From NCBI GenBank assembly GCA_963813715.1, contig CAWFAK010000005.1:992001-1056000 (forward strand): a DNA stretch of 64,000 nt, in the 5' to 3' direction. Source of the stretch: an uncultured Planctomycetaceae bacterium. Its GTDB lineage: Bacteria > Planctomycetota > Planctomycetia > Planctomycetales > Planctomycetaceae. The position numbers and the translations under genes are program-made. A model generated the notes under the pieces. The model was not told the DNA's origin, made no database searches, and saw nothing but the letters and a program-made list of their open reading frames with translations. Shown in pieces: positions 1,221 through 57,128 of this stretch. Position 1 is the first letter of the stretch. Each line of letters opens with the position of its first letter.

Positions 1221-2513
1221 CTAAACAGCGCGGATAATCGCGGCAGCGCTTTGACCCATCGCCGTGCGATTGACGGTCAGGGCCGTCTTCTTTCGCAGAT
1301 CGAGCGGCTCGCGGTGGACGACCCGCAGCCGGAACCGCGGATCGGGAGTCTCGTAATTGAGCGTCATCGGCAGCGAGCCGTGCTCGAGCGCCAGCAGGCT
1401 GCCCGCCAGCTCGACCGCGCCCGAACCCGCGTCGAAGTGGCCGAAATAGCTCTTGAGTGCCGTCACCGGAATGGATTCGGCCTCGTCGTCGAAGGCCCGG
1501 CGGAAGGCGCAGGCCTCGACCAGATCGTCCCGCTGCGTGCTTTTTCCGTGGGCATTAATGTGCCCCAAATCCGAGGGCCGCAGGGACGCCTGCCGCAGGC
1601 TGGAGCGAATGGCGCGGACCAGGCCCGTGCCCCCGTTGCCGTTCGAGGAGCCTGTGCCGTCGCAGCCGGCCGCGACGCCCAGCACCTCGGCGTAGATTCG
1701 GGCTCCGCGACGTGCGGCATGGCTGTACCGCTCGACGACGAACGCCGCGCCCCCTTCGCCCACGATCGTGCCGTCACGGTCGAAGTCGAAGGGGCGGCAC
1801 GCACGGAGCGGATCGTCGACCCGCCGTGACAGTCCGTCAAACAGGCTGAGCTTGGCAATGTCGACCGGATGCACGTTGGAGCTGGAGGCGCCGACGATCA
1901 TGCAGTCGGCCGCGCCGCGGTCGATCACGTTGACCGCTTCGGCCAGCGCCAAGAGCGCCGACGACTCGCGGCACGTGATCGTGTTGTTGGGCCCCCGCGC
2001 ATCGAATTCGATCGAAACGTGGCAGGCGGGCATGTTGGGCAACTGCCGCAGAAACCAGAGCGGACAGATTTCGCCCATCGCTTGTTCGTTGAATCGCTCG
2101 TAGGCGAAGGCGCCCTTTTCGTCGCTCGAGGCGGTCACCGCGTCGGTGAGTTCCTGCGGCGTTGTGGAGATGCGGCCAGCCCCGAAGGAGACGCCCAATC
2201 GGTCCGGATCGACCGAGCCCCGCACCAGGGCGGCGTCGTCCATCGCCAAGGTCGAGGCGGCGACGCCCAGCTGGATGTCGCGGGACATGACCTTGATCAA
2301 CTTTTTATTGGCAATGTAGTCTTCGGGCGCGAAATCGTGGATTTGGGCGGCTAGGCGCGTGGGCAGATGGTCGCTGCGAAAAGCGCGCAGATAGCCGATT
2401 CCGGATCGGCCCTGCATCAAGCTTTTCCAGAACGCATCTTTGCCGATGCCGATCGGGGAAACGACCCCGACACCGGTGATGACAATCCTGGTTGGAATGT
2501 CCCCAGCCTTCAT
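1221..2513 (-). CDS. beta-ketoacyl-ACP synthase II (FabF-like) family protein with Cys->Glu at the catalytic position
   Basis: RIVITGVGVVSPIG, PNMPACHVSI, GPNNTITCRESSA (typical GPNxSxSTACAT), RACRPFDFDRDG, INAHGKST, KSYFGHFDAGSG. ATG 2513 is preferred over the upstream ORF start. Confidence 0.9.
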   Translation of the reverse strand: MKAGDIPTRIVITGVGVVSPIGIGKDAFWKSLMQGRSGIGYLRAFRSDHLPTRLAAQIHDFAPEDYIANKKLIKVMSRDIQLGVAASTLAMDDAALVRGSVDPDRLGVSFGAGRISTTPQELTDAVTASSDEKGAFAYERFNEQAMGEICPLWFLRQLPNMPACHVSIEFDARGPNNTITCRESSALLALAEAVNVIDRGAADCMIVGASSSNVHPVDIAKLSLFDGLSRRVDDPLRACRPFDFDRDGTIVGEGGAAFVVERYSHAARRGARIYAEVLGVAAGCDGTGSSNGNGGTGLVRAIRSSLRQASLRPSDLGHINAHGKSTQRDDLVEACAFRRAFDDEAESIPVTALKSYFGHFDAGSGAVELAGSLLALEHGSLPMTLNYETPDPRFRLRVVHREPLDLRKKTALTVNRTAMGQSAAAIIRAV

Positions 2514-3480
2514 GAGACGACCCAGCGGCCGAGGCACGGCTCCGGTCGCAGCACCGCGATATCGGCTTTTCAACGTCCCGCCGGTGTCCCGCCGTCGAGA
2601 GGTCTCAAAGCTCGATCAACTTTGCCGTAAACCACTTCGCCCGAATTCTGCGGCCCGCCCGTGCGTGCCGCTGCCGATTTCTCTGCCGACCCTATTTCTT
2701 TATCGGCAATCTCCCCAGGGAGGGGAGACGGGTGATCGAGCAAACGGGGGACTGTTTTCGTCAAACAGCCGAAGCAGCCAACCTGCGCAGTCAGTCGACG
2801 CTCATGCCACTCGCAGCGCTTGACCCGCGTGAGTTTTCCGCGTGAATTTACAAGGGCGATTTTTCTAGCCGTCGCCAACCGCAGGATAAGTCGTAACTAC
2901 TGATCCCCATATGTGTTTGCTAGCCTGACCCATGTCAAATTAGACCGCAGATCGCGGGGCGCGTCAAGAACAATCCGCTACGGGCGGCACAAGGGGGCAA
3001 GTCGCCGGGTTCGGTAGAATCGGCCATGTCGACGCGTGGTGCGGCATCTCCAACGTCGCAGGACGGGTGTCGCGGCCAGTTCCCCGACGCGGGCGACACC
3101 GAAGTGGGGCTGAGGCCGATTGTGCCGACGGAATCGATTCTTCTGCGGCACCCTACACGCGACTGGTCATTTCGCGTCGCAGGGAGGGGGAGCGATGGTT
3201 CGTCGAGAGGGCGTTCAGCAGAGAAGATTGCGGCCGCGGCTAAAGAAAAACAGCCGGGAGAATTCCGGCGGTGGGGCAGGAACCACAAGAATTCAGCGTC
3301 CGGCTGCCATTCCCATTTTACTGCGGAAGGGGCGGGCTTGCAAACTTCGGGCAAGGCTGGATTAGAATGCGCGGGCTGCATCTGGAACTCCTTAACCAAG
3401 ATGCGACGGCGGCTGCTCCGGATGGCAGTGCCGCCTCGACGAAGCGACGACGAGACAAATCCGACATCAGCCGTGCTCAC

Positions 3481-46778: not shown

Positions 46779-47771
46779 ATGAAATCGCGGCGAATCGGAT
46801 TGCTCGGATTCGATGGAGTGATGGCGCTGGATTTGGTGGGGCCGATCGATGCCTTCAGCTCGGCTGTCTTCGAAGGTGCAGGGGCGGCGCTCAGTCCTTG
46901 CTACGAAATATCGGTGATCGGTCTGAGTCAAAGGCCATTCGTGTCCGAGTCGGGCATCGTCTTTCAGCCGCACACGACGCTCAAGAATGTTCCCGCGCTC
47001 GACACCCTCTTGATTCCGGGAGGTTGTGGACTACGCGTTCCACAGACTCAAGCGACGGTTGCTGAGTGGGTCAAAGCTCGGGCCGCGAAGCTCCGTCGCA
47101 TTGCGACTGTTTGCACCGGCATTTATGGCCTGGCACCGACCGGACTCTTGGATGGCCGCACGGTGACGACTCATTGGCGGTTTGCCCGGGATCTCGGCAA
47201 GCGATATCCCAAGCTCAATGTCGATGCCAATGCCATTTTCTGCAAAGACGGCCCGTTTTACACCGGAGCGGGAATCACGTCCGGGATCGACCTATCGCTG
47301 GCCCTGATCGAGGAGGATTACGGGCCGACCGTGGCGTTGGCGGTGGCCCGGGAACTGGTGGTCTACGTCAAACGATCTGGGGGGCAGGAACAATATTCCG
47401 AGCCGCTGAAATTCCAGACCCGTTCCAAGGATGGCTTCGGCGATCTGGCGGCCTGGATTCACGGGCATCTGGAGCAAGACCTTTCAGTCGAAACGCTCGC
47501 TCACCGGGCAAGGCTTTGTCCGCGGCATTTCTGTCGACGGTTCAAAGACGTGTTCGGCACGTCACCGGCACGGTTTGTGGAAGACCTGCGATTGGGTGAA
47601 GCGCGTCAGCGGCTGTCTCTGGCCGATCAATCGATCGAGACGGTTGCCCGATCGGTCGGGTTCGCGAGCCCCGACGCCTTCCGCCGCGCGTTTGAGCGGC
47701 GGTTCGGTATCAATCCCAGCTCCTTCCGCAATCGATTCGATGTCCGACTTCGACGCCGTCGCCATCCTTGA
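46779..47771 (+). CDS. GlxA-family transcriptional regulator (DJ-1/PfpI + AraC HTH)
   Basis: LDLVGP, ATVCTG, TTHW, GITSGIDLSL, KRSGGQEQYS, C-terminal AraC HTH. Confidence 0.93.
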   Translation: MKSRRIGLLGFDGVMALDLVGPIDAFSSAVFEGAGAALSPCYEISVIGLSQRPFVSESGIVFQPHTTLKNVPALDTLLIPGGCGLRVPQTQATVAEWVKARAAKLRRIATVCTGIYGLAPTGLLDGRTVTTHWRFARDLGKRYPKLNVDANAIFCKDGPFYTGAGITSGIDLSLALIEEDYGPTVALAVARELVVYVKRSGGQEQYSEPLKFQTRSKDGFGDLAAWIHGHLEQDLSVETLAHRARLCPRHFCRRFKDVFGTSPARFVEDLRLGEARQRLSLADQSIETVARSVGFASPDAFRRAFERRFGINPSSFRNRFDVRLRRRRHP

Positions 47772-47791
47772 GACTTCTTGGAGAAAGTCAG

Positions 47792-48613
47792 ATGAGAACG
47801 AGGTTTTTGCCCTTCTTCATTTTGCTGTCACTCGTGGCGATATCGTGGGGGGCTGCCCTGCGCGAAGCAAGCGCCGGTCCAATCACCGTGGACAAGGACG
47901 CGGCGAAACGCGGCAAGAAGATTTACGTGTGTCCTCCTTGTGGACTCGACTGCGACAAAGAAACGCACGACAAGCCGGGGGTCTGCCCGCGCTGCGGAAT
48001 GACCCTCGTGGAAAAAACGATTGAGTCGCACGCGTCGGGCGAAAAACCGCTAACGGTCGCCATTTTGCTTTTCAACGGCGTCGAAATCATCGACTACTCC
48101 GGCCCCTGGGAAGTGTTTGGTGCCGCTGGCTTTGACGTGCATACGGTCGCCTCAGCCCTGGGCCCCATTAAGACCGTCTTCGGCCAGAAAGTTATTCCGG
48201 ACTACACGCTAGAGAACAGCCCCAAGGCCGATATCGTGCTCATTCCTGGGGGAAACATCGCTTCGGCGCTGAACGATGCGAGAGTGATCCAGTGGATCCG
48301 GGCTCGCTCGAAAGATGCGAAGCAGGTGATGTCGGTTTGTAACGGTGCTTTTCTGCTGGCAAAGGCCGGTCTCTTGGATGGATTGTCGGCAACAACAGTT
48401 CGCGGAGGGATCGAGAGACTCGCCAAAGTCGCACCCCGAACTAAAGTCGTGCACAACCAGCGCGATGTCGACAATGGCAAGTTCATCACCACTGCGGGCC
48501 TTTCCGCCGGGATCGACGGGGCAATGCATCTGGTCGCGAAGACTCTGGGACACGATGCCGCCCAGGCAGTCGCCTACGGACTCGAATACCGATGGGACGA
48601 CGAGCCGAAGTGA
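47792..48613 (+). CDS. secreted DJ-1/PfpI protein with an N-terminal Cys-rich heavy-metal-binding module
   Basis: Signal peptide; YVCPPCGLDCD...KPGVCPRCGMTLV; VEIIDYSGPWEVF; MSVCNGAFLLA; TTAGLSAGIDGA. Confidence 0.88.
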   Translation: MRTRFLPFFILLSLVAISWGAALREASAGPITVDKDAAKRGKKIYVCPPCGLDCDKETHDKPGVCPRCGMTLVEKTIESHASGEKPLTVAILLFNGVEIIDYSGPWEVFGAAGFDVHTVASALGPIKTVFGQKVIPDYTLENSPKADIVLIPGGNIASALNDARVIQWIRARSKDAKQVMSVCNGAFLLAKAGLLDGLSATTVRGGIERLAKVAPRTKVVHNQRDVDNGKFITTAGLSAGIDGAMHLVAKTLGHDAAQAVAYGLEYRWDDEPK

Positions 48614-48694
48614 GTCGGCTACGATCGCGACCATACGACGTGCCGTGCAAACGTACGGAGTCAATAAACTCGTCGTAGCGGCCGGATCCAACGA

Positions 48695-49417
48695 TCAGCC
48701 GACCAGCTCGACCTTGCCGGTGCCCAGGTGGTAGACGCCGCCGGCAACTTTCAATTCGCCCGAACGTGACGAGCTTCGCCAAAATCGGCTCCAGGCTTTG
48801 GAGTCGCCGGACGCCCTCGACGACATTTGCCTTGATCACGTTGGCGAGCTTGTTGCCGGGCTGCCCCGCCACCATTTTGACAACCGGTCGAATCGGGTTG
48901 ATGAGGGCGTCGATCGATCCGGGGAGTGCGTCGTTGGCCTCGATGTGCTCGATCGCCGCCTTGCACGCGCCGCATTCGCTGTGGCCCAGTACCAGGACCA
49001 GTCGGGTCTTCAGCTCAGCGACGGCGTATTCGATGCTCCCCTTCACCGTGGGCCCGCGCCGCTGACGACGTTGCCGGCGATGCGGATGACAAACAAGTCG
49101 CCGATGGCCTGGTCGAAAATTACTTCGGGAGCCACGCGCGAGTCCGCGCACCCGACGATGACGGCATGCGGAGCCTGTCCGTGCTCCAGTGGCAGAAAGT
49201 CCTGCGGAGTGCGTCCCGGGTGCCGGAGTCTGCCTTCGACGAACCTCTGGTTGCCGGCGAGTAACTGATGGAGTACCGCGTCGGGTTTCGGCTGCTCGGC
49301 CGCGTCGGCGGCGCCTCGCGGCGAGAGGCCAGTCAGACCGGACATCCCCATCACCCCCACGGTCGCCGCGGCACTCCCCATGAACTTACGTCGGGACAAT
49401 TGATCCAAGTTATCCAT
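48695..49417 (-). CDS. beta-carbonic anhydrase with a Tat signal; frameshifts near 49050 and 48770
   Basis: SRRKFM Tat motif, LLAGNQRF, GCADSRV, IRIAGN, GSIEYAV, LGHSECGA. Confidence 0.92.
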
Positions 49418-49460
49418 AACTCAGCTCCTTATAGGTCCGCGTACGCGAGTCGGCGGCAAT

Positions 49461-49495
49461 AAAAACAGCCACCTTGTGTGGCCACAAGTGGCTGT
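49461..49495 (-). terminator. terminator-like hairpin following the duplicated tRNA 3' end
   Basis: ACAGCCAC-C-TTGTG/CACAA-GTGGCTGT stem with TTTTT on the minus strand. Sequence-similar to 53327-53357. Confidence 0.6.
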
Positions 49496-49520
49496 GCGTG
49501 TTTCGGGGCAATCCAAAAAG

Positions 49521-49542
49521 GTGGTCGTGGCAGGATTTCGAA
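49521..49542 (-). repeat. att-like duplicate of the tRNA-Val(CAC) 3' end
   Basis: GTGGTCGTGGCAGGATT(T)CGAA versus GTGGTCGTGGCAGGATTCGAA at 53384-53404: 17 nt exact, one extra T, then CGAA. Confidence 0.85.
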
Positions 49543-49822
49543 GAATCGCCGAATTCCCTCGGAAATACAAGCGCCGCTACACGAAGCTGTGCTAAATCCG
49601 GTGCAGTTGGAGGCGATTTTCCCACTTTGACACCCGGGGACTGGACTCGGCTCGTGGCGGGGTTCGGGCATTTCCCCGCGTTGCTACAGAGTGCGCGTAA
49701 TCGATGCGGCTTGGGGCGTGCTCTCGGACCAGACACGACCGGACGTCGGCCGCCTCATCACCGGGCCCTACCGATCGATGAACGCGCGGGCCAGCCGAGA
49801 TCTCGGACTGACTGCGATCCGA

Positions 49823-50254
49823 TCACTCAAGGGGAGGCAGGATATCCGGCTCGATCTGATAACCGTCCGCGATCGAATTTGTCGTGTTGAACAAGCCGAC
49901 GATCGCCAGGACTTCTCCCAGGGCTTCGGTATCGAGGCCAAGCTTTCTTAACGCGGCCGTGTGCGAATTGACGCAATAGGAACAGCCGTTGGTCGCCGAT
50001 ACTGCAAGGGCAATGATCTCGCGTGTCGTCGCATCGAGCTTGGGTTGACGTCCTACTGCTTCAGGATGCATCAGCGCCTTGAGACTCGACCAAACCAAGT
50101 CGAGGTGGTCAGGGTTGGTTGCGAGCACTCGCCACAGGTTGGGCACAAAGGGAATGTTCTTCGTCCTCTTGATGTCAGCATACACGTCGGCCACTCTCCC
50201 GTTCGCATCTTCCTCAGCGACTGGAACGACCGTTGCAATTCTCTGAGCAGACAT
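49823..50254 (-). CDS. carboxymuconolactone decarboxylase / AhpD-like protein
   Basis: VADVYADIKRT..VPNLWR...REIIALAVSATNGCSYCVNSH (CxxC...H). Confidence 0.9.
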   Translation of the reverse strand: MSAQRIATVVPVAEEDANGRVADVYADIKRTKNIPFVPNLWRVLATNPDHLDLVWSSLKALMHPEAVGRQPKLDATTREIIALAVSATNGCSYCVNSHTAALRKLGLDTEALGEVLAIVGLFNTTNSIADGYQIEPDILPPLE

Positions 50255-50389
50255 GGAGGAACCCTTTCGTGAAATGTTACGGTGGCCTCCGGCCGGCTTC
50301 TCGGCATGGCTCTGGTTCTACGACAAATGAAGGGTCCAGCCCACTCGTCTCCGGACTCTGTCTCCCCTTTCACTCCGAGATCCAGCTTT

Positions 50390-50623
50390 TCATTGTCCGT
50401 CTCCGATCGCACGGCCCTCGCGACGACCATCTTGCTCAACTCGCCGCGATTCGCAGAGGCTCCGGACGGCTTGCTTTTGCTCATCGGTCAGTTGCGACCA
50501 TGTGGCAATTTCATCAATCGTTCGCCGACACGCGACGCAGTAGAGCCTCGTGGCATCAAGCGTGCAATCGCCCCGACACGGAGAAGACGCCGCGTCAACG
50601 TCCGCCGGAGGAAAACGCTGCAT
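50390..50623 (-). CDS. DUF1289 family small Cys-rich protein
   Basis: SPCRGDCTLD....CVACRRTIDEIATW. Confidence 0.85.
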   Translation of the reverse strand: MQRFPPADVDAASSPCRGDCTLDATRLYCVACRRTIDEIATWSQLTDEQKQAVRSLCESRRVEQDGRREGRAIGDGQ

Positions 50624-50637
50624 GGTAACTTACTCGG

Positions 50638-51231
50638 TTATTTCCGGACGGGCGTGCGGCGCGAGCCGGAGCCGATGAACGCCTTCGGCCCGGGTGCCGC
50701 AGGCGGAGTTTCGCCGGCGACCGATAGATTGAACGTGTAGTCCGTTTTACCGGGCGCTTGATGATCGATGAGGAACTCCGGTTTTTTCGAGCTGACCTCG
50801 GGGTCGTTGTAGAGATTCTTGAGCGAGTCCGGTCCCAGGAAGCCCATCCTCGGATTGTAGCCCAGCTGGGCAAAGAGCATTATATATTTGCCAGGCGGCA
50901 GCAGTGGGAATTCGAACGACCCATCCGGCTTGACGATGGCAGTTGCACTGCTGTTGGCCTTGGCTTCGGGCTTCGCGGCGGCGTAGGCGATCGCCACGAG
51001 GCGCGCGGTCTCGGATTTCGCAGCGGGAAGCTCATCGTCAACGGTGATCTTTCCGCCCAACGGATAAGCCGTCACCGGATTCATTCCGGCGCTTTCATAG
51101 GCTTTCTCGAGACGTTGAGCCGTGGACTCGCGTCCGCCACACCCGACGGGCACGAGGAAGATAAACGTCGCTGCGATCCCCCACGCGATTTTGCGCCGGT
51201 GCGCGCGGCGACTCAGAAGGGCGGGTGCCAT
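50638..51231 (-). CDS. putative lipoprotein with a carboxypeptidase-regulatory-like beta-sandwich (typical DUF1559 partner)
   Basis: Lipobox-like PVGCGG; GKITVDDE...DGSFEF..LPPGKY...DSLKNLYNDP. Confidence 0.75.
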   Translation of the reverse strand: MAPALLSRRAHRRKIAWGIAATFIFLVPVGCGGRESTAQRLEKAYESAGMNPVTAYPLGGKITVDDELPAAKSETARLVAIAYAAAKPEAKANSSATAIVKPDGSFEFPLLPPGKYIMLFAQLGYNPRMGFLGPDSLKNLYNDPEVSSKKPEFLIDHQAPGKTDYTFNLSVAGETPPAAPGPKAFIGSGSRRTPVRK

Positions 51232-51340
51232 TCCATCGACTCCACTCTCTCAAAGACGCGGAGAGATTCCGTCTAGAAGAAAGTCGGCCGCCCTGGACAC
51301 GTCCAGAGCGGTCGACCGGAGTTCGCAGGCGACGGTCATG

Positions 51341-52591
51341 TTAGAACTGGTCAGGCACGGCTTCGTGTCCGCGCGGCGTCATCAGCGCGACGAATGTGAC
51401 GATCGAAATATTCTCGCTCACCATGCGAGCGGATCCGTCGCACATGGCCACCCCACCCGAGCCCGGGTGGAAGCTGAAAATGGCGTTGTAGCCGATCTCG
51501 TTCGTGCAGTTGATGAAACAGACCGGCATTGGGCAGTTTGTGCTCGAAAAGCAACTCGGCTTACTGAGGCCGGTGAAGTCGGACCCGAGCACATAGGCGA
51601 CCGCGTTCGTCGAGGCCCAAGCGCCGCCTGAGTTAAAAGCGTGAGCGGCGAGGGGCGTGGGCAAAGTCGTCTTGCCGGCTCTTGTCCAGCAATCCGGCCG
51701 GCCCGCCATCTCAGTGCAGAAAAGCGTCGTGGACGTCCCGTCGGTGATCTGATCAATCGATAAGCCGCAGGAATTCGAGAGAAAGCTGTGAAACAGGCCG
51801 GTGGGCCCAATGAACCCGCTGCCTCCGGCGCCGGGAATGCCGAGTGCGTGTGTGTAAAACGCGTGGGCAGACGAATCCAGATCGCACAGGCCTTCGTAAT
51901 CCAAAGCACCGTGAAGGCGTTTGAAGGCAAAGCAGGTGCGACAGAATGTGAGACAGAATTCGTAGATCGCGTTTCCCTCGACAAATGGATTTTGCGTTCG
52001 CGGCGACGAGGGGCAGACGTAGGACGGTATGACGGCGGCCGCTGGGCGGGTGTAGGCACAGGGATCGAGGCACGGACAGCCAGAATTTGCAAAGGTGTAC
52101 TTAGTCGGGCACGGAACGCCCGACAGGCAGACCGGGGAGAAGATCGGCGCGTTCATGCAAATTCGGCTGTAAACCGTGTTGGCTTCCACGAACGGCAACA
52201 GCCGTTCCGGCCATGTGTGCAAATTATAGTCGTTGCGGCCAACGCTCCCGGGCACGCCAACTGTGAACAACGTCCCGCAGAAGCAATCCTGCAAGTAACC
52301 GGTCGCCACGCCGCACGTGCACACGAAGGGGGGTGGGCCGCAGAATGTGTCGGCGTTGTAGATCACTGTTGTCGCCGGCGGGAATTGGTTGTTGACGTCG
52401 TGATAATTGTGGGCTGCCAGCGCGATCTGCTTGAGGTTGTTGCGACATTGAGTGCGTCGCGCTGCCTCGCGCGCCGCTTGCACGGCCGGCAGCAAAAGCG
52501 CGATGAGCACGGCGATGATGGCGATCACCACCAACAGCTCGATCAGCGTGAACCCGGGCGGCGCCTGATCCAATCGTTTTCTTTTCAACAT
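51341..52591 (-). CDS. DUF1559 prepilin-type protein, unusually Cys-rich
   Basis: [54 protein letters not shown]-terminal H-x9-DG ([13 protein letters not shown]). 25 Cys counted in 416 aa. Confidence 0.95.
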
Positions 52592-52858
52592 GACAAGTCC
52601 TCGTTGTCTGGGGCCCGTCCGGATGGTTGATCCGGCAGCCCGCGCGGCAAACGGGGCCTCGCGTCGCGAAGAGGCGCATGCTCTCCCAATCCAGGCCGCG
52701 GGCGTTCGGCGATTCGCATGTTGCGCGGCGCACGCGCGAACGCCAACCGACGGACGGTGGATGAGAATCGCCGCGATGTCGCGCCATCAACGAGGTGCGC
52801 GGCAGCGCAAGAACGCGTGTCTTCGTTCCCCGAAAGACCCGAATGCAAAACGACGAAT

Positions 52859-53055
52859 GGGCAGGTCTTCTGGCTTCCGGATCGGCCTACTCACCGCACC
52901 TTCCCGCCCGGCTCGCTCGCGATGTGGTCGCGACCTTCGCAGGACAGTGGTATTTGCGGCTTTCGTCCCCGGTTACAGCGGCGGGACCGCGACGGATTCG
53001 CACCGTCTTCCCTATTCTTCGTCCGGGCCACAAGCCCGAGACGACACCCACGTCG
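52859..53055 (-). ncRNA. cobalamin (B12) riboswitch
   Basis: Minus strand reads ...GGTG...AATAGGGAAGACGGTGCGAATCCGTCGCGGTCCCGCCGCTGTAACCGGGGA...ACCACTG...GGGAAGGTG...GAAGCCAGAAGACCTGCC (B12 box). Ends approximate. Confidence 0.93.
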
Positions 53056-53061
53056 CGGGTC

Positions 53062-53089
53062 ATCCTAACGCGCGCGGAACGCTTGTCAA
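53062..53089 (-). promoter_or_regulatory. sigma70-type promoter for the riboswitch leader
   Basis: TTGACA (53089-53084), 16-nt spacer, TAGGAT (53067-53062), immediately 5' of the riboswitch. Confidence 0.7.
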
Positions 53090-53326
53090 CTCACGCATTC
53101 GCAGGTCTGATCGAACTCTGTCCGCGATCAGTGGTGTCGAATGTATCACGGGATACCGTCGCATTCGGACGAGTCTCCTTCCGGATGCCTCGAGCCCCGC
53201 AAGCCGGATGATCCGGTGGTCTGTCCGCAAATTGACTTCGGTGGAGCGATAGCGGGTGATCACGAATGCGGCGCGGTCCGCGGACCCAGGGCAACGTGCA
53301 GCGACGCGAGCAGTCGTTACCAAATG

Positions 53327-53357
53327 AAAAGGCCACATTGTTCGGAAACAAGTGGCC
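53327..53357 (-). terminator. intrinsic terminator downstream of tRNA-Val
   Basis: Minus strand GGCCAC-TTG-TTTCCGAA-CAA-T-GTGGCC-TTTT. Confidence 0.65.
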
Positions 53358-53384
53358 GAGGTGCCTGAGTGCAGGCCAATCAAG

Positions 53385-53458
53385 TGGTCGTGGCAGGATT
53401 CGAACCTGCGACCCCATCGATGTGAGCGATGTGCGCTAACCAACTGCGCTACACGACC
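53385..53458 (-). tRNA. tRNA-Val (anticodon CAC)
   Basis: GGTCGTG-TAGCGCAGTTGGTTAGCGC-A-CATCG-CTCACAT-CGATG-GGGTC-GCAGGTTCGAATCCTGC-CACGACC-A. Confidence 0.97.
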
Positions 53459-53503
53459 AGTCTGGCCGAATTTTACAGCAGACGGTCGGCGTTCGGAAGT
53501 GCT

Positions 53504-54514
53504 TTAGGGGGCTCGGCCTTCGCCCAGCCGTTTTAGCTCAGGCTCCAGGCGGCGCATGCCTTCCTCGACGGTCACGAGGGGCTTGTAGCCGAAGTCCCGC
53601 TGGGCACGGCCGATCTGGTAAGAGTGCGAGCCGCTGAGCTGTTGGGCCAGGAACCGCGTCATCGGCGGCTCGGCAGAAATGCGCAGAGCTTTGTAGATCG
53701 CTTCCAAGGTTGCCCCGACGGCGTAGGCGGCTCGGCTCGAAATCGATTTGTGGACTGGCGGCAGTCCGGCGAGGGCCAGGAGCTCGTCGATCCAGCGCCA
53801 GAGGTTCACCGGCTGCGCCTCGTTGATGAAGTAGGCATTGCCGGCGGGGGGCGCGCCGGGGTGGAGGGCGTCGGCGGCCTGCAGGTGGGCGGCGGCCACG
53901 TTTTCGACGTAGGACATTGCGATCACGTTGTTGCCGCCGCCGACGCGTCGCAACCGTCCTGAGCGCGCGCGGGCGATCAGGCGCGGCACGAGGTGATTGT
54001 CCCGCGGGCCCCAGATCAAGTGCGGTCGCAGCGCCACCGTCGCCAGCCCGTCGCTTCCGTTGGCGGCGAGCACCTCGCGCTCGGCCAGCGCTTTGGTGTG
54101 CGGGTAGTAACACAGGTAATGCGACGGGTAGGGATGGCTCTCGTCGACGTTGATGTGATCGGCCCCGTCGTAAATCACGCTGGGCGAGCTGGTGTAGATT
54201 AGGCGGGCGACGCGGTCCTGGCCACACGCGTCGAGAACGTGCCGCGTGCCGAGCGTGTTGGTCTCGTAGTAGTGCTTCCAGGAACCCCAAATTCCCGGGA
54301 CGGCCGCGACGTGGAACACGGTGTCCATGTTGCGGCAGGCGCGGTCGACGTCGTGGGGATTGCGGATGTCCCCCTCTTGGAATTCGACGCCCAATTCGGC
54401 CAGCCGCCGATGGGAGCGTCGCGCCAGCACTCGAACGCGATCGCCGCGGGCCGCAAGCTGCTCAGTGAGATAGAGGCCGAGGAAGCCTGCGCCGCCGGTG
54501 ACCAGGGCATTCAT
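53504..54514 (-). CDS. oleD: 3-beta-HSD/extended SDR, OleD-like 2-alkyl-3-oxoalkanoate reductase
   Basis: [51 protein letters not shown] overlap with the oleC stop. Confidence 0.82.
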
Positions 54515-56291
54515 GGCTGGCCGTGCAGCGCGTTGGCCGCCCAGAGGCAGAGCCGCTCGCGATTGATCTTGGAGTTGTGGCGGAAGTCGACCGGCAGCGA
54601 CCGGTGAAAGAGAACGGTGTGGATGTCGAGCGTGAGTGGATTGGCGGCTGCCAGGTCGCGCAGCTCGGCCGCGAACTTTTGCCGATCGGCATTCCGCAAT
54701 GGGAACTGTTTCGGCCGGGGCTCGACGATGATCACGGGCGTTTGATCGCCGACCTGGCCCGGTTTGCGGATCACGCCGACGAGCGCACTGCGGGCGACGC
54801 GCGGATGCTCGTTGAAGATGGCCTCGCACGGCTCGGTGAAGAGGAGCCCCTTTGCCGTCGTCACGATGTGCGACTTGCGGCCGCAGTACCAGAGGCGTCC
54901 CTGATGGTCCAGATAGCCGACGTCGCCCATGCGATGCCAAAACGGAACTGGCGCCGTCGCATCGTGGTCTTCGTGCGGGTCGGCGATTTTGGCTTCGGCC
55001 TCGGCTAGCGGTTTGCGGAGGTAGCTGCGGGTGACGCTGGGGCCCTGGACGATAATTTCGCCGATCTGGCCGGCCGGCAGCTCGCGGGCCATCGACAGGG
55101 TAGCAATCGGCCCGTGCGTGATTTGGATGATCTTGATCGTCACTCCGGGAAACGCGCGGCCGACGCAGGTGCCGGCTCCGGTGCGCGTCCGCTCGGCCGT
55201 GTCATCGAGCACTTCGCGGCTCGAGATCGACGCAACGGGCAGGGCCTCGGTCGCGCCGTACGGCGTATATACCTCCGCGCAGGAGCAGTTGCGCGTCGTT
55301 TCTGGCAAACGGACCACGGCCGGCAGTTGGCGCGGCGCCTCATCAGATTTCGGTTCGGCATCGAGCAGATCGGTGAGCCGCTCGAGCAGGCTGACGGGCA
55401 CGGCGGCGCCGGCCGAGAACGCCCGCCGCAGCGAGCAGAGGCGGAGCTGATGCTCTTCGCAGTAGGTCACCACCCGTTGCCAAAGTGCGGGGGAGCCGAA
55501 CGACTGCGTGACGGTGTGGTCTTCGATCGCCTCGATGATGCGGGCTGGGTTCGCCTTGGCCGGTTTGGAGGGATTCATTTGCGGCACGACGGTCGTGGTG
55601 CCCATCGCGGCGTTAAACAGGCCAAAGAGCGGAAAGCCCGACAGGTCGACGCCGCCGGGCTGGATGCCGAAGCGGTCGCGAATCAGGTCGACCTGCGCGT
55701 TGAACATCCCGTGCTCGTAGATCACTCCCTTGGCTGGTCCGGTGCTGCCGCTGGTGAAGATCACCGCGGCCGGATCGGTGGCTTTGGCGGCGACGGTTTC
55801 AAACGGTTCCCAACGAGCCCGCGCAACTCTCGATAAGTCGGGCCTCCCCAAAACCAGCGACGGCCAACCGTGAGATTCAGCCGCGCCCGGCGAAATCGTC
55901 GCCGGTTGGCAATCCGCACCACGTGCACGAGCGGCAGGGCGAGGAAACCCTCGGGCTCGACGTCCTCCAGGCAATCGAGCAGCGAGGGCAAGCCCATGCC
56001 TGGATCGATCAGCACGATCACGGCCCCGGCCTTGAACGCCGCAAAGACCAGCGCGACGAACTCGATGCCGAAGCGGACCATCAGCACGAGCCGCGTCCCC
56101 GGACCAACGCCACGCTCGCGGAGGCCGCGGGCTAACAAATCGCTCTCCCGATCGAGCTGTCGGAAGGTGACGTGCGAATAGGCGGCGCGGCCGAGCGAAT
56201 CGCGTCCCGCGGCGGCGACGACAGCCACGGCATCGGGCGACTGCTCGGCCGTGGCCGTGAGTCGCAGTGCAATGTTCATCGACGGGGACAC
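54511..56291 (-). CDS. oleC: OleC-like olefin beta-lactone synthetase (AMP-forming ligase); frameshift near 55820
   Basis: [87 protein letters not shown]. Confidence 0.88.
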
Positions 56292-56306
56292 GCGATGGCA
56301 CCGCTC

Positions 56307-57128
56307 TCAATTCGAGGCACGGATCAGGATTTCGCCCTTGCCCAGCTCCAGAAAGTCTCCGCAGTATCTCCGATAGCGGGCCGCGAAGCACTCGTCGGGC
56401 ACAAAAAAGCCCATTTCCCGCAAGCGCAGCAGAGAATAGCGCAGAAACACGGGCGCGAAATCTCCGCTGGCCGGAAGGTCGACAGCAGGGCCGGCGGGCT
56501 GTGCGTGCCCAAGAGGCCGATCGTCCCGCGCTTCATGCCGGCCCCGGGTCGAATGCCCACCTCGCCGAAAAGCAGGATTGAACCGGCGATCAGGTTGAAG
56601 CCGGGAGCGAGTCCCGCGCGGCCGCCGACGGCGATCAGCCCGCGACGCATCGTGTGGCCGATCTCGTCGCCCGCATTGCCGTCGATCAGGATTTCGCCCC
56701 CCGTCATTCCCCGGCGACCGCCGCGATAGACGGCTCCGACCAGGTTGCCGGCCGAGCCGCGAATGTGAATGCGACCGCCGTGCATTTCGGCCCCGACCCA
56801 GTCAGCCGCGTTGCCGCTGACGGTGATGCTGCCGCCGCGCATCTCGGCGCCCAGATGCATGCCCGCGTTTCCCTCGACGCGGATTTGCCCGTCCGTCATT
56901 CGCGCGCCGATCAGTTTGACCTGCGCAGTCTCCCTCCCAGACGAGTTCGCTATCGGCCGCGCTGCCGGAGACGCGGAAGAAATCGCCGAGGGAAACGCGG
57001 GCATTGCCGTGCTGAATGACGGTCCGCCGCACGTCTTCGACCGATTGTTCGCGAACGGTCTCCAGGCGCACCGCATCGACCTCGAGCGGAATCGAGCTCG
57101 GCTGTTCTAAGCGGAGCACCAGGGGCAT
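56307..57128 (-). CDS. fhcC: formylmethanofuran dehydrogenase subunit C / formyltransferase-hydrolase complex subunit C; frameshifts near 56930 and 56440
   Basis: IPLEVD...LGDFFRVSG; GxGxxM.GG repeats ([49 protein letters not shown]); C-terminal GKGEILI. Confidence 0.88.

Follow-up and report, generated by a model that had tools for sequence, protein, structure and literature searches.

In leaders of the btuB type, as in Escherichia coli, a cobalamin riboswitch controls BtuB, the TonB-dependent receptor of the outer membrane. In Bacteroides, uptake loci also encode surface lipoproteins that capture B12, namely BtuG, BtuH and BtuJ/DUF4465; these are reported to work with BtuB, and one of them to form a stable complex with its transport partner (PMC6143338, PMC10404256, bioRxiv 10.1101/2025.07.01.662609). 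The stretch of DNA considered here, 64,000 nucleotides from an uncultured Planctomycetaceae bacterium (hereafter the window), carries a locus with features of both systems: on its minus strand a cobalamin riboswitch precedes a gene for a Cys-rich, pilin-like protein of the DUF1559 family and a gene for a lipoprotein. As in btuB leaders, the riboswitch would head the gene for the outermost step of uptake, an arrangement that nine other riboswitch loci of the Planctomycetaceae have in exactly the btuB form; unlike btuB leaders, the first gene of the window unit encodes a pilin-like protein with a lipoprotein partner and no Plug or barrel. As in the Bacteroides loci, a lipoprotein is encoded under B12 control, but the window lipoprotein has no match to DUF4465 (PF14717), and the folds that it matches are beta-sandwiches of a generic kind.

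No family of paralogs in planctomycete genomes is larger than DUF1559, and no function is known for any copy. Planctopirus limnophila carries 68 copies, two of them essential (PMC10632474), and Rhodopirellula baltica 74 (PMC2754498). Literature searches, which did not extend to supplementary files, returned no published report of a link between a riboswitch and DUF1559. None of the DUF1559 literature found concerns B12, and no literature was found on DUF6580, a membrane protein family that figures below. Queries on cobalamin riboswitch with pilin, on H-X9-DG, and on riboswitch, cobalamin, Planctomycetes and pseudopilin returned only work that is unrelated by its titles and the openings of its abstracts; 'Prepilin-type' together with 'B12 riboswitch' returned nothing.

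The reading that we hold, on balance, to be probable is that the pair forms a B12-regulated envelope module for corrinoid acquisition. It is the best reading of the locus because sister species carry, behind these two genes, genes for a DUF6580 membrane protein and a binding protein of the BtuF class (Peripla_BP_2). The riboswitch itself (52843-53064, minus strand) is complete, as the initial annotation had it: the covariance model RF00174 matches over positions 1-189 of 189 with neither end cut off (114.4 bits against a gathering score of 31.5; E 6.1e-28), and the orthologous aptamers of sister species score 109-117 bits. Behind it lie the DUF1559 gene (51341-52591, minus strand), encoding 416 residues of which 25 are Cys, and, after a gap of 109 nt, the gene for the partner lipoprotein (50638-51231, minus strand), encoding 197 residues with a lipobox at Cys31.

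A survey of riboswitch loci across the family, a check proposed with the initial annotation, shows that the linkage is not unique to this genome. RF00174 was found in 91 of 101 Planctomycetaceae genomes, with 103 matches in total, of which 100 were fetched together with 5 kb downstream (two in the window's own genome and one at a contig edge were left out). In 83 of the 100 loci a DUF1559-type gene, detected by phmmer with the window's DUF1559 protein, lies on the riboswitch strand no more than 1.4 kb downstream. A TonB-dependent receptor, with Plug and barrel, comes first in nine loci (L086, L089, L093, L096, L097, L098, L099 and L102 by Pfam, L085 by its coordinates); the remaining first genes encode DUF6580 (three loci), a ribonucleotide reductase (one) and a DUF4465/PEP-CTERM protein (one), and three loci could not be judged because of their short length. 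A receptor-led and a pilin-led riboswitch occur together in a single genome, G065. A TonB-dependent barrel was not found in 69 of the 101 genomes, among them the window genome and its 98%-complete congener. Among the individual loci, L084 has the riboswitch followed by DUF6580 and then cobT (DBI_PRT), and L070 has it followed by a ribonucleotide reductase with an ATP-cone.

The canonical operon runs from the pilin-like protein through a small lipoprotein (about 120 residues, with a CxxC...CP motif and no Pfam family) to DUF6580, a multi-pass membrane protein, and Peripla_BP_2. The proteins encoded downstream of the DUF1559 genes were clustered and compared with Pfam by way of representatives. 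Of the 60 canonical loci for which 4 kb or more was fetched, 41 have the small lipoprotein, 36 have DUF6580 and 22 have Peripla_BP_2. A Diphthami_syn_2 (PF01902) gene also occurs in 18 of the 60 (for example L021:1800-2501). The Peripla_BP_2 proteins of L002 (2523-3188), L030 (2478-3410) and L107 (4860-5837) have no signal peptide, residue 6 already falling on profile position 1, and since there is no room for one a cytoplasmic role is possible; no btuCD-like genes were seen beside these three genes. Apart from the canonical proteins, nine riboswitch-linked DUF1559 proteins (L003, L019, L050, L068, L079, L082, L083, L088 and L092) form a clade of their own with a support of 97, which would make theirs a third kind of pilin module under a B12 switch in the family. 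The next gene in L050 encodes a DUF4465 and PEP-CTERM protein, and in L081 such a protein stands directly behind the riboswitch, so that DUF4465/PEP-CTERM proteins do occur behind riboswitches of this family.

The window unit shares with the canonical operon the riboswitch family, the operon position and the prepilin N-terminus, and in sister species DUF6580 and Peripla_BP_2 as well. It differs in both of its proteins. Riboswitch-linked pilins have a median of 309 residues and four Cys, against 416 residues and 25 Cys in the window protein and in that of its congener, and the window lipoprotein is not homologous to the small canonical one: a profile of 34 small lipoproteins gives 2.4 bits, confined to the signal peptide, and we rejected that assignment. 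A tree was built from 80 of the 83 linked proteins (three fragments shorter than 250 residues were dropped) and 27 of the 52 DUF1559 open reading frame (ORF) hits in the window's own genome, these being the window protein and 26 paralogs; own-genome hits that were too short or had no prepilin pattern were left out, which removed the closest paralog. In this tree 67 linked proteins form the canonical clade (support 99 in the Shimodaira-Hasegawa-like approximate likelihood-ratio test, 100 in FastTree), and no paralog from the window genome falls inside it. Nor does the window protein, which we had considered as a member; together with the congener's protein (L029) it groups with ten riboswitch-less paralogs of its own genome at a support of 100, and FastTree agrees.

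These relationships, and those of the lipoprotein, point to a multi-copy family. The lipoprotein family has 17 loci in the window genome; at 15 of these the immediate neighbor, on the same strand, is a DUF1559 gene, and 26 of 27 loci in other genomes are preceded by a DUF1559 gene. By this comparison the window pair is one copy of a generic DUF1559-plus-lipoprotein cassette. Tandem cassettes are found on contig C17 of the same genome (G000), at 713163-720811 and 762112-766756, with three in a row and two in a row and with two copies nearly identical. All the cassette-type DUF1559 paralogs in the genome have 15-38 Cys and no riboswitch. The initial annotation had taken the Cys-rich paralog to give a clue to the ligand, a suggestion that we do not follow: because the trait is common to cassette paralogs without a riboswitch, it is most simply explained as a property of the subfamily, with disulfide bonds in an exported domain, and says nothing of cobalt or corrin.

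Within the same genus, G107 has a riboswitch followed by a 295-residue pilin with four Cys, by DUF6580 and by Peripla_BP_2, and has no lipoprotein. This pilin is canonical; its 25 best hits are all proteins of that clade, of which the top one scores 402.6 bits with 64% identity, versus 89 bits to the window protein. Since G107 still carries the canonical pilin, the cassette pair appears to have replaced the canonical riboswitch-linked pilin recently, within or near this genus. The direction of the exchange, from canonical to cassette type, is suggested by parsimony from the wide spread of the canonical type.

The new arrangement is well conserved. Across 12 genomes of the genus the lipoprotein is present at 68% identity or more in 11 and RF00174 in 10; in eight the riboswitch lies 1.6-1.9 kb upstream of the lipoprotein ortholog on the same contig and strand, and in G106 the contig breaks off 283 nt before the DUF1559 gene begins. 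In a species collection of 27 loci, a riboswitch of 109-117 bits precedes six of the eight whose lipoprotein shares at least 69% identity (of the other two, one is cut by a contig end and one is a second copy without a riboswitch) and none of the 19 more distant paralog loci. The order DUF1559, lipoprotein, DUF6580, Peripla_BP_2 is found in L029, L104-L109 and L137. Gene order and homology thus portray the sister-species operon as a canonical one in which the front end has been swapped. The riboswitch with the top score in the genus, 134.6 bits, is a separate case: L135 (G106 C115:176-375) lies on a 1.7-kb contig with no downstream gene recognised by the profiles used, and could derive from a contaminant.

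In the window genome this operon is split. The genome has two RF00174 matches, the second of which (L002, C7:647391-647579, plus strand, 40.7 bits) lies before DUF6580 and Peripla_BP_2 and has a counterpart of 45.6 bits, L134, in G101. L002 is collinear on both flanks with the unsplit operon of a sister species (L107) and lacks everything between mid-aptamer and the point where the lipoprotein gene ends; its positions 1-1340, 1455-1639 and 1762-3181 match positions 166-1458, 1504-1685 and 4096-5530 of L107. The riboswitch on C7 repeats the -35 box and the first ~145 nt of the window aptamer almost exactly, and its 3' part is diverged and shortened. Conversely, the only part of the window homologous to the sister-species operon is the segment at 50638-53101 (minus strand), comprising promoter, riboswitch, DUF1559 gene and lipoprotein gene, which blastn aligns at 88% and 84% to L107 1504-3282 and 3535-4079, with no match for the flanks. 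A tRNA-Val gene with anticodon CAC (53384-53458, minus strand) lies 283 nt beyond the upstream end of this segment. In L103 the unit is flanked by the same tRNA-Val and by a 3-beta-hydroxysteroid dehydrogenase/epimerase gene; the DUF1289 and AhpD-like genes downstream in the window are absent from L103 and were not counted as members of the unit. No direct or inverted repeats were found at the ends of the segment.

Because L002 is collinear with L107 on both flanks and the flanks in the window are unrelated to L107, the comparison shows that a copy of the unit came to lie at a new site next to a tRNA gene and that the old copy was then deleted, leaving a truncated riboswitch behind. The same split is present in G101, with riboswitches of 116.6 and 45.6 bits, and three genomes in which the operon is unsplit carry a single riboswitch each. 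The history also bears on the statement in the initial annotation that btuB/btuF, cbi/cob, metE and nrd genes are lacking. None of btuB, btuF, cob/cbi, metE and nrd is among the annotated ORFs of 47000-57000, and for that range the statement holds; for btuF it has to be amended, as a BtuF-class gene, together with DUF6580, is present at the old locus on the other contig.

The leader of the relocated unit contains the further parts that the initial annotation had described. The sigma-70-like promoter (53062..53089, minus strand) consists of TTGACA at 53084-53089, a 16-nt spacer and TAGGAT at 53062-53067, with 10 of 12 consensus matches; it is the sole promoter-like site in 50300-53500, and with a mean of 0.8 such sites in shuffled sequence it is not significant by itself. 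Its -10 region is kept in seven orthologous leaders, and its -35 box is the one copied at the C7 locus. The expression platform (52592-52842, minus strand), from the end of the aptamer to the ATG, measures 251 nt rather than the ~265 nt first estimated. It contains the Shine-Dalgarno sequence GAGGA (52598-52602) within a block, GACAA-CGAGGA(C/A)-TTGTC, that lies directly 5' of the ATG and is invariant in the seven leaders except for one loop base (C or A). The block is a potential small hairpin with the Shine-Dalgarno sequence in its loop, and just upstream of it a second hairpin (~52612-52641) shows compensatory changes at two pairs in the leader alignment. No terminator-like site is present in the leader, the only match of the terminator scan falling inside the DUF1559 coding region. 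Control is probably translational and, as with the uptake genes of other systems, B12 would repress the gene pair.

Two candidate interactions within the leader were discarded. A pairing of the 3' strand of P1 with the Shine-Dalgarno sequence, proposed by RNAalifold, comprises five pairs without compensatory change (four invariant, one changed from C-G to U-G) and was not relied on; a kissing interaction between aptamer loop L5 and the Shine-Dalgarno loop, noticed by eye, comprises only three to four pairs, with one base variable. Metatranscriptome contigs from four runs in four studies of soil and rhizosphere cover both genes at low depth and the flanking genes too. Such contigs cannot tell RNA from carried-over DNA, and we draw no conclusion on transcription from them; the absence of cover over 52614-52750 in three runs is likewise uninterpretable.

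The DUF1559 protein has the two ends that the initial annotation had recognised, a prepilin N-terminus (GFTLIE) and a C-terminal H-X9-DG motif, and all the corresponding families score above their cut-offs: PF07596 (DUF1559) 126.1 against 23.3 bits over residues 38-395, PF07963 (N_methyl) 26.1 against 21.2, TIGR02532 27.2 against 16.3, and TIGR04294 23.1 against 19. Its predicted structure (mean predicted local distance difference test, pLDDT, 79.1; predicted template-modelling score 0.79) comprises a helix at 16-67, a mostly irregular Cys-rich body and C-terminal strands. Searching this model with VIA, we found that all 12 chains with Z of at least 2 are type IV pilins or pseudopilins, at weak Z values of 2.2-3.7; the best is 6xxd_A (Z 3.7, root-mean-square deviation 3.5, 119 aligned residues). 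Foldseek gave no match better than E 0.39. We read the model, with due regard to the weakness of the Z values, as a pilin core with an insertion of about 250 Cys-rich residues. The protein resembles pilins and pseudopilins such as PilA4 (6xxd), EpsG (4lw9), PulG (5wda) and ComP (5hz7) in its prepilin motif and long N-terminal helix and, on the weak Z values, perhaps in a pilin core, and differs from them in the insertion, the lipoprotein partner and the B12 control. Orthology to the named pilins GspG, ComGC and PilA was rejected, the equivalog scores being far below cut-off (35.8 vs 88.85 bits for GspG, 33.1 vs 75 for ComGC) and confined to the N-terminal 60-70 residues. Neither window protein has a Pfam match to Plug or barrel (PF07715, PF00593) or to the class III periplasmic binding domain, Peripla_BP_2 (PF01497).

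The partner, too, is a lipoprotein as first annotated: its lipobox, G30-C31, is invariant in 47 aligned homologs. Its sole Pfam match, CarboxypepD_reg (PF13620), is below threshold at 18.7 against 32.3 bits, and in a protein atlas the nearest clusters are unnamed planctomycete proteins (0.93-0.94), with CarboxypepD_reg only at 0.89. The predicted structure (pLDDT 77.6) is a beta-sandwich, perhaps of the transthyretin-like kind, which VIA matches at Z 7.3 to 1nkg and 4yok and at Z 6.2 to 5aq0 and 1qmu, both of them transthyretin-like domains from carboxypeptidase D; values of Z below 8 may reflect a common arrangement only. The matches are to generic beta-sandwiches, including EMC7, DUF3823, CBM20, a rhamnogalacturonan lyase domain and the N-terminal extension of SusC. 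BtuG, BtuH and BtuJ are not among the listed matches of the lipoprotein, a listing that does not exclude them, and among the listed Foldseek and VIA matches of both models there is no known B12-binding fold.

Structure prediction for the two proteins together gave an interface score (ipSAE) of 0.80, against 0.01 for the best of three controls. The mark used for this score is reached by 116 of 157 solved complexes and by 2 of 215 mismatched pairs, counts that are rough because own alignments were used. The runs share at least 66% of contacts, with a partner pLDDT of at least 82. On the lipoprotein side the predicted interface comprises residues 33-55 and the sandwich edges; on the pilin side it comprises residues 239-249, 333-358 and 393-397 of the globular domain, adjoining the H-X9-DG region. 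The DUF1559 protein and the lipoprotein are therefore most likely, as modelled, to form a heterodimer.

The genome from which the window comes (7.49 Mb in 18 contigs, 82.6% complete) is consistent with a need for imported corrinoid. MetH is present, at 1291 bits, over three adjacent frames of 1291, 245 and 152 bits (G000 C5:544679-548217); the split match could reflect frameshifts or assembly indels. MetE, CobQ, CbiC and a TonB-dependent barrel were not found in the genome at this level of completeness. For these reasons the organism fits the description of a B12 auxotroph that imports corrinoids across the outer membrane without BtuB. Genes for prepilin peptidase are present at three loci and genes for secretins at at least five, which fits a cell equipped to process and assemble proteins of the pilin type. 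In DNA uptake, a retracting pilus is known to bring its ligand in through a secretin. When B12 is scarce the pair would be made, and would serve as the envelope-side step of corrinoid capture in a B12-dependent bacterium that lacks BtuB, working as part of a pseudopilus and by way of a secretin, not as a periplasmic binder anchored in the membrane. The pair itself would bind the corrinoid and pass it to its operon partners in sister species, the DUF6580 membrane protein and the protein of the BtuF class.

Several results weigh against this account. The specificity for B12 is argued from regulation and gene neighborhood alone, and no binding site was identified. The Peripla_BP_2 partner is a distant class III binding protein that scores below every NCBIfam equivalog cut-off, that of BtuF included. 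The loci led by a TonB-dependent receptor have neither DUF6580 nor Peripla_BP_2 within 5 kb (0 of 8), which means that the pilin module does not simply stand in for the receptor within an otherwise unchanged operon. The upstream regions of the 16 other cassettes in the window genome contain no Rfam element at E <= 0.1, and close copies without a riboswitch exist both in L110 (71% lipoprotein identity) and in the own-genome DUF1559 at C7:783131-784330 (491 bits); with a generic cassette family and such copies at hand, the function of the pair could be generic rather than ligand-specific. As to the switch, the minimum-free-energy fold of the leader is no better than that of shuffled sequences (z 0.02), and the alignment of the platform yielded no switching helix backed by covariation. 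Finally, in a genome that is 82.6% complete the genes that were not found are not proven absent.

The main rival, which we judge rather unlikely, gives the pair an accessory or export role without direct corrinoid binding. Its proteins would then be B12-regulated components of a machine resembling type II secretion systems or type IV pili, which puts some other factor on display, secretes it, or remodels the envelope when the cell is starved of B12. The pseudopilins of type II secretion push proteins outward, the fold matches of the DUF1559 model are pilins and pseudopilins, and the cassette family to which the pair belongs is generic, with about 16 riboswitch-less copies; close copies that lack the riboswitch exist too. 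Yet in eight loci the pair stands directly before the DUF6580 and Peripla_BP_2 genes, these operons contain no candidate for a secreted B12 binder, and in nine other loci of the family the first position is held by a TonB-dependent importer. Regulation by B12 may also serve a different need. B12 riboswitches repress B12-independent substitutes such as metE and nrd, and the pair could supply what is missing when B12-dependent enzymes fail, for example by capturing methionine, or some other product, instead of B12; a ribonucleotide reductase does follow the riboswitch in L070, and the window genome has MetH while MetE was not found. We regard this as improbable, given that in sister species the operon is shared with a class III binding protein and with DUF6580, which in L084 also precedes cobT, and that the either/or pattern with TonB-dependent receptors across the family points to import of the cofactor.

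That the association with the riboswitch is a purposeless by-product of rearrangement seems more improbable again: the unit was indeed relocated and the old locus kept only a truncated riboswitch, but at the new site the aptamer is still whole (114.4 bits) and the promoter and the invariant Shine-Dalgarno block are still in place, and the split is retained in a second genome, G101, with the unsplit form conserved in the rest of the genus. The initial annotation had allowed for capture of either corrinoid or cobalt. Operon context upholds the first as the best reading, and we give the second the least credence of all, although 25 Cys in 416 residues could bind Co2+ for cobalamin synthesis and cobalt transporters stand under B12 riboswitches in B12 producers (PMC2667541). 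CobQ and CbiC were not found, so that there is no sign of corrin synthesis, and the riboswitch-less cassette paralogs are equally rich in Cys (15-38), which fits disulfide bonds in an exported domain.

Elsewhere in the window, at 48486-49417 on the minus strand, a beta-carbonic anhydrase is apparently split over two overlapping ORFs, which may be a frameshift. The ORF at 49043-49417 has a Tat-like (twin-arginine translocation) leader and profile positions 1-34 of Pro_CA, and that at 48486-49151 looks, by eye, like the remainder of the enzyme.

The occurrence of a B12 riboswitch before DUF1559 genes in most genomes of the Planctomycetaceae provides a testable ligand for a family without known function, as does the lack of any identified TonB-dependent receptor in 69 of the 101 genomes. 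What is new here is the swap of one paralog for another inside a single genus, the generic cassette family that underlies it, the prediction of a heterodimer, and the history of copying and deletion with its truncated riboswitch. When the pair moved away from the transporter genes it kept a complete riboswitch; together with the exchange and the predicted heterodimer, this makes the function of DUF1559 directly testable, with B12 as the probe. That a cassette pair replaced the usual pilin at the head of a B12 operon hints that such pairs are interchangeable devices for nutrient capture. More speculatively, and we put this forward only as a tentative proposal, DUF1559-plus-lipoprotein cassettes may be interchangeable, ligand-specific capture heads of a TonB-independent pilus or pseudopilus route of import across the planctomycete outer membrane. 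If so, the exchange of pilins before the same transporter genes within one genus would show that the heads are modular, and the first ligand would be known from the copy under the B12 switch; with dozens of copies in each genome, the family would amount to a repertoire of receptors for nutrients, on a par with the multiplied TonB-dependent or SusCD systems of other phyla.

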